Positions 51,303 to 51,351 of a DNA stretch of 64,000 nt are shown in pieces. Numbering within the stretch: the first letter of the stretch is position 1; every line of letters starts with the position of its first letter. Source of the stretch: Escherichia coli O127:H6 str. E2348/69. GTDB lineage: Bacteria; Pseudomonadota; Gammaproteobacteria; Enterobacterales; Enterobacteriaceae. The stretch lies in NCBI RefSeq assembly GCF_000026545.1, contig NC_011601.1; one strand, 5' to 3'. The translations under genes were made by a program, and so were the position numbers. Under the pieces are notes generated by a model that worked only from the letters and a program-made list of their open reading frames with translations, did no database searches and had not been told where the DNA came from.

Positions 51303-51351
51303 CTCGCCAGGTAAAGGTGTTGTAGCGCTATTCCTGCTGCGACGCCTGTAA

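Follow-up and report, generated by a model that had tools for sequence, protein, structure and literature searches.

In the 64-kb window analyzed here (the whole stretch of 64,000 nucleotides from the Escherichia coli O127:H6 str. E2348/69 chromosome, whose positions are used throughout), the aga/gam operon and the gene rsmI face each other. The upstream neighbor of agaI in this operon is agaD (49743..50534, + strand), which encodes the IID subunit of the PTS galactosamine transporter; it is annotated by RefSeq at 5444-6235 of locus L002 (offset +44299) and matches the NCBIfam model NF007359 with 455.8 bits. The agaI gene, taken from the list of open reading frames (50535..51302, + strand), encodes a galactosamine-6-phosphate isomerase/deaminase-like protein of 255 aa, which scores 465 bits against the NCBIfam equivalog NF007291 for a cut-off of 271, and its TAA stop codon occupies positions 51300-51302. 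On the opposite strand, rsmI (51352..52215, - strand; NCBIfam NF011570 and RefSeq) encodes the 16S rRNA C1402 2'-O-methyltransferase of 287 aa, with 626.7 bits against the NF011570 equivalog (cut-off 502) and its stop codon at 51352-51354. The convergent intergenic spacer from the agaI stop to the rsmI stop (51303..51351) is therefore exactly 49 bp long, and the distance given in the initial annotation is borne out by the ORF ends at 51302 and 51352. Divergent from rsmI lies lpoA (52280..54316, + strand; RefSeq, L002 7981-10017), which is collinear with K-12 at 97.5% identity and belongs with yraN, diaA and dolP to the conserved right-hand backbone lpoA-yraN-diaA-dolP. The gene order annotated by RefSeq for the identical E2348/69 sequence is the same, i.e., agaD, agaI, rsmI, lpoA.

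The spacer contains a hairpin (51315..51347, + strand) with a 13-bp stem and a 7-nt loop, for which an RNA fold of -20.3 kcal/mol (z = -2.8) was calculated. The - strand RNA reaches -9.8 kcal/mol, since the 5' arm carries C-to-T substitutions that produce G.U pairs, and the hairpin is stable only on the + strand in E2348/69. The stem is kept in Escherichia albertii (-28.8 kcal/mol) and in the Escherichia lineage E69 (-23.4 kcal/mol), with a single G-C to A-U double change; in these two, the RNA of either strand folds. A Rho-independent terminator in the spacer was considered and rejected for lack of a U-tract (GUAAUCAC follows the stem), and a scan with the terminator consensus gave no site inside 51303-51351. 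The element is likely a conserved 3'-end or stabilizer hairpin of the aga transcript. In K-12, an unrelated perfect hairpin is found between yraK and rsmI.

The locus is organized differently in the reference strain K-12. In MG1655, agaI and rsmI enclose yraH, yraI, yraJ and yraK (b3142-b3145), and 5,449 bp separate the stop codons of the two flanking genes. The initial annotation had given this order agaI-yraHIJK-rsmI for K-12 and suggested an alignment with MG1655; the order is correct, and agaI and rsmI are not adjacent in that genome. The yraHIJK operon is one of the twelve chaperone-usher operons of K-12 (PMC8174762), and its products carry the corresponding domains: a Fimbrial domain in YraH and in YraK, PapD_N and PapD_C in YraI, and PapC_N, Usher and PapC_C in YraJ, the latter with 719 bits on PF00577 (PF00419, PF00345 and PF02753 being the control matches of the Yra proteins). 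The chromosomal position of this Gamma*-type operon is the same in both strains, i.e., between agaI and rsmI, whereas the operon itself is wholly absent from the E2348/69 junction.

The exact limits of the difference were determined by blastn, which places the breakpoints at 51259/51359 of the window and at 6995/12480 of the K-12 locus L001. A segment of 5,484 bp in K-12 stands in place of 99 bp in E2348/69 (51260..51358), this short allele-specific segment taking in the final 43 nt of agaI, the whole 49-bp spacer and the final 7 nt of rsmI. Up to 51259 and again from 51359, the flanks share 97.4-97.5% identity with K-12; in 60-bp bins, the identity is 0.95-1.00 outside the breakpoints and 0.22-0.33 between them, with an abrupt drop at both. 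The breakpoints thus fall within coding sequence, at the 3' end of agaI and of rsmI, and not in the spacer. The K-12 segment comprises an alternative agaI tail, an AT-rich region upstream of yraH, yraHIJK and a different hairpin, and its G+C content is 0.29 in the yraH upstream region and 0.43-0.51 otherwise, against 0.50-0.57 for the flanks. No remnant of yra sequence was found within 51260-51358. Conversely, possible remnants of the 99-bp empty site in the K-12 insert were sought and rejected, the identity being only 41-44%, which is at noise level.

As a consequence of the position of the breakpoints, the C-termini of both proteins differ by allele. In E2348/69, AgaI ends in LHNYFTCMIDEMCRR, with the tail DEMCRR typical of the empty-site allele, and RsmI ends in QQGE. 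The corresponding ends are LHSNFICLINT and QQG in K-12, and RNFICLIDRNKA and QQE in Escherichia whittamii. The AgaI tails can be aligned in frame (LH-SNFICLIN in K-12 with LH-NYFTCMID), the K-12 version resembles LHRNVSCLID of Citrobacter, and both conform to the tail pattern of other genera, such as LHRNVSCLIDGSQY in Citrobacter. Since it is in frame and of AgaI type, the K-12 tail appears to derive from the end of a diverged agaI gene and not from random DNA. In gene-by-gene comparisons, these allele-dependent C-termini of AgaI and RsmI may pass for unrelated variation, and the breakpoints given here can serve in pangenome work and in adhesin typing.

Apart from intergenic DNA, the 5,484-bp K-12 segment contains only yraH, yraI, yraJ and yraK, with no integrase, transposase or tRNA gene, and alignments of the two ends of the insert showed neither a repeat nor a duplication. 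Of the features by which a mobile genomic island is recognized, an integrase or transposase and a tRNA target are lacking from the yra segment, and flanking direct repeats were not seen in the end alignments. Boundaries within gene ends, together with the lack of integrase, transposase and tRNA, argue that the segment was most likely moved by homologous recombination. The abrupt fall in identity at both breakpoints, the in-frame AgaI-type tail of K-12 and the occurrence of the same breakpoints in E. whittamii point the same way. Under this mechanism, which we infer from the anatomy of the junction, the yra segment would be a replacement allele that entered and spread between lineages through crossovers in agaI and rsmI; it would bring along an H-NS-type AT-rich region upstream of yraH and the four genes yraHIJK, and it would have imported, together with them, an agaI tail (SNFICLINT) and an rsmI end of foreign origin.

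A first alternative is that yraHIJK has been relocated in E2348/69, to another place in the chromosome or to a plasmid. When K-12 YraH, YraI, YraJ and YraK were compared with the whole 64-kb window by tblastn, only noise was obtained (best E = 0.30, and 0.42 for YraJ); no usher gene is present between agaI and rsmI and, with no E value better than 0.30 for YraH, YraI and YraK, no gene for a PapD-like chaperone, fimbrial subunit or adhesin was found in the window. For the source genome, a chimeric query was built from a 2,651-nt cyuA-cyuP anchor (coding sequence only, from the window) and K-12 yraJ. A REP-type repeat (GCCGGATGCGGCGTAAACGCCTTATCCGGCCTAC...) lies at about 20150-20290, between yhaL and cyuA, and a query including it matched at least 20 places per E. 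coli genome; cyuP (21629-22960) is intact in E2348/69 and is split by ISEc52 in several genomes, including that of the ST131 strain JJ1886. The chimeric query, used in megablast with a sensitivity of approximately 85% nucleotide identity, so that less similar copies such as ushC itself would be missed, matched two places in BL21, in K-12 derivatives and in O157:H7/O55:H7, and a single place, the anchor, in the E2348/69 chromosome, which ranks first and holds no yraJ by this search. With the K-12 yra segment as query, 0 matches were obtained on plasmids in a collection of 5,426 complete E. coli genomes. The search of the source genome for a second location of yraH-K, advised in the initial annotation, thus yielded none, and a relocation appears very improbable.

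This conclusion is in agreement with published work on usher proteins. E2348/69 carries UshC (UniProt B7UIJ5), which is encoded in the operon ushABCD, also of the Gamma* type, and UshC and YraJ are mutually exclusive (Stubenrauch et al. 2017, PMC5717340), which also argues against a yra operon elsewhere in the genome. The Yra system has its closest relative in the ushABCD operon of E2348/69 and ST131 (PMC5717340), but this operon differs from yraHIJK by its locus (ECSF_0165 in strain SE15), which is outside the 64-kb window. Having no yraHIJK, E2348/69 therefore cannot make Yra fimbriae, which means one potential adhesin fewer in its repertoire. In the 2010 work of Korea and colleagues, the yra operon of K-12 is reported to be cryptic under laboratory conditions and functional if expressed. 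For an operon that is cryptic in the laboratory, absence is not expected to alter laboratory phenotypes; the finding confirms that this B2 EPEC background is without one cryptic K-12 fimbrial operon, which matters little beyond bookkeeping.

To place this junction among E. coli strains, 5,426 complete genomes were searched with a 2.1-kb query, a contiguous agaI/rsmI junction being counted when at least 80% of the query was covered in one place. The contiguous form was found in 1,835 of these genomes, yra DNA in 3,523 (every match chromosomal) and other configurations in approximately 70. The initial annotation had described a strain-specific adhesin island difference: the presence or absence of yraHIJK is indeed what distinguishes the two forms, but with 1,835 contiguous against 3,523 yra-bearing genomes it is a lineage-level dimorphism and not a strain-specific trait. 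Strains that are empty at the junction or yraJ-negative include LF82, NRG857c, JJ1886, UTI89, ATCC 11775 and SMS-3-5. The empty junctions of these B2 and F strains, of E. albertii and of the cryptic Escherichia lineage E69 have the same arrangement as E2348/69 and differ from it only by point substitutions, the B2 strains showing 100% coverage and 98.7-100% identity over 2.1 kb; phylogroup assignments here come from the literature and from a few named strains. These counts also bear on the idea that an assembly or collapse artefact removed 5.4 kb from the E2348/69 sequence. Such an artefact is hardly conceivable and found no support: the junction reads the same, at 100% identity over 2.1 kb, in three independent assemblies of E2348/69 or O127:H6, and the contiguous form is shared by the 1,835 complete genomes, by E. 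albertii and by another Escherichia species.

The distribution observed is in agreement with the literature, according to which the E/B1/A lineage acquired yra (Gonzalez-Alba et al. 2019, PMC6896753) and expression of yraH, yraJ and yraK is specific to A/B1 urinary isolates (PMC4128348). E2348/69 belongs to phylogroup B2 and has 9 chaperone-usher operons (Wurpel et al. 2013, PMC3559732); Yra is not mentioned by name in the main text of that study. Both the polymorphism with its phylogenetic distribution and the absence of YraJ from E2348/69 are thus already published, whereas the fine structure of the locus, that is, the breakpoints in the gene ends, the tail swap and the sharing of alleles across species, may be new to the literature. 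A separate configuration was observed in strain EC25 (NZ_CP035123.1; L003 3032-4110), where agaI is of the K-12 type and an IS1 element lies approximately 150 bp downstream of it, with a truncated gene for an aromatic amino acid transporter and then deaD coming next. This arrangement results from an independent IS1-associated deletion of yraHIJK, rsmI and many downstream genes.

In order to polarize the two forms, one genome per GTDB species was scanned with a degenerate pattern of the RsmI C-terminus, and the 120 Enterobacterales loci obtained were screened by tblastn. E. albertii (L009) and the cryptic Escherichia lineage labelled 'E. coli E69' (L077) are collinear with E2348/69 through the junction, at 91.8% and 93.3% identity, respectively. 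Both have the features seen in E2348/69, namely a 49-bp spacer with the hairpin, an AgaI ending in DEMCRR and an RsmI ending in QQGE. Further away, agaI faces rsmI at a distance of 51-141 bp in Citrobacter werkmanii, C. youngae, Enterobacter sp. ENT03, two Phytobacter species and a MAG, and Pseudocitrobacter has an agaI remnant with a 50-bp spacer. The G+C content of the yra region, 0.29-0.48 against 0.50-0.57 in its flanks, likewise speaks for the empty form as the older one. E2348/69 itself presents the two marks of an empty-site allele, an unbroken sequence through the junction and allele-specific gene ends. Given the short junction in E. albertii, in E69 and in other genera, the short form is therefore most likely ancestral, and the 49-bp junction would most likely be an unoccupied ancestral state rather than a deletion in E2348/69. 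The polarity that we infer is thus the reverse of an island loss: E2348/69 probably lost no island, and it is the K-12-type lineages that would carry an extra allele.

The yra form is also found outside E. coli. In E. whittamii (L063 1323-6331), yraHIJK is present with the same breakpoints as in K-12, and the insert is about 85% (78-90%) identical to that of K-12 at the nucleotide level, against about 91% for the flanks. From these breakpoints and this divergence it follows that the yra allele is old and is not a recent insertion within E. coli; it would be at least as old as the split from E. whittamii, or the product of an ancient transfer. The same data lend themselves to the opposite history, a secondary loss, in which E. 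coli inherited yraHIJK from its own ancestor, or from one common to it and E. whittamii, and the B2 lineage then lost the operon, either through an exact deletion or through recombination with an empty allele. The insert is at least as divergent as its flanks, which speaks for such a history, independent losses are known, as illustrated by the IS1-associated deletion in EC25, and B2 strains could in principle have exchanged an inherited yra allele for an empty one by recombination.

A syntenic yra-like operon also adjoins rsmI in Klebsiella (spallanzanii/oxytoca complex), between gatR and rsmI (L124/L125 6084-11083; also L081 8576-11893). As in K-12, it consists of four genes (189, 230, 841 and 360 aa) convergent with rsmI-lpoA-yraN-diaA-dolP; it differs from K-12 by its YraJ (approximately 65% identical) and YraK (approximately 43%) and by its left neighbor, which is a galactitol cluster with the regulator gatR and not agaI. 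On the grounds of the identity of YraJ (65%) and of the gatR left flank, Klebsiella was dismissed as a source of the K-12 allele. With a yraHIJK-like operon beside rsmI in this genus, a yra-type operon at rsmI could therefore be ancient in the Enterobacteriaceae and have been lost repeatedly.

Secondary loss nevertheless appears unlikely to us. The 49-bp spacer, the AgaI tail and the hairpin are common to E2348/69, E. albertii and E69, and a simple deletion of a K-12-type allele could not recreate this shared 99-bp segment, which counts against loss. Moreover, the flanks in E2348/69 remain 97.4-97.5% identical to K-12, with no sign of a foreign tract, and the published reconstruction is a gain in E/B1/A (PMC6896753). 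Taken together, we consider it likely that the 49-bp gap in E2348/69 is the unoccupied, most likely ancestral allele of a two-allele agaI/rsmI locus, at which yra would be a replacement allele acquired via homologous recombination. The short allele of E2348/69 comprises the DEMCRR end of AgaI, the 49-bp spacer with its hairpin and the QQGE end of RsmI, and the 5.5-kb allele is that of K-12 and of approximately two thirds of the complete E. coli genomes.

A wider reading of this two-allele locus can be put forward more tentatively. The empty allele is common to E. albertii, the cryptic Escherichia lineage and E. coli B2/F, and the yra allele to E. whittamii and E. coli A/B1/E. Each of the two may have been maintained, or re-exchanged, across Escherichia species. 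With somewhat less than even confidence, we suggest that the locus is a trans-species two-allele system older than E. coli, exchanged by homologous recombination with a swap of the AgaI and RsmI tails, and that it would be a recombination hot spot and not a classical island. In two other genera, Citrobacter sp. (L050 932-1933) and Trabulsiella guamensis (L097 8628-9620), the agaI/rsmI spacer holds a gene of approximately 330 aa that encodes a Fic domain (motif HPFxDGNGR; PF02661, 76 bits) and a winged HTH. The presence of this Fic-HTH gene, and of the yra-like operon in Klebsiella, suggests that the site receives cargo repeatedly and, judging from the sequences compared, the spacer acts as a site of repeated exchange flanked by conserved genes.

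Several differences were observed in the neighboring aga genes themselves. The aga/gam cluster of E2348/69 is intact (39797-51302) and comprises agaR, kbaZ, agaVWEF, agaA, agaS, kbaY, agaBCD and agaI. K-12 is without approximately 2.3 kb of it (window 43033-45333), agaW and agaA being pseudogenes and agaE and agaF being gone, which we take to be the known deletion behind the N-acetylgalactosamine-negative phenotype. In an Escherichia lineage labelled E. coli SCPM-O-B-8794 (L024 14-1776; approximately 93.8% identical to E2348/69), the whole aga cluster, which covers approximately 11.5 kb in E2348/69 (39797-51302), is absent, and garD is found approximately 450 bp from the rsmI stop. Finally, agaD of E. 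albertii NBRC 107761 (L009 2749-3536) gives two overlapping matches in different frames (residues 1-92 and 84-263), which suggests that this gene is frameshifted in the E. albertii type strain.
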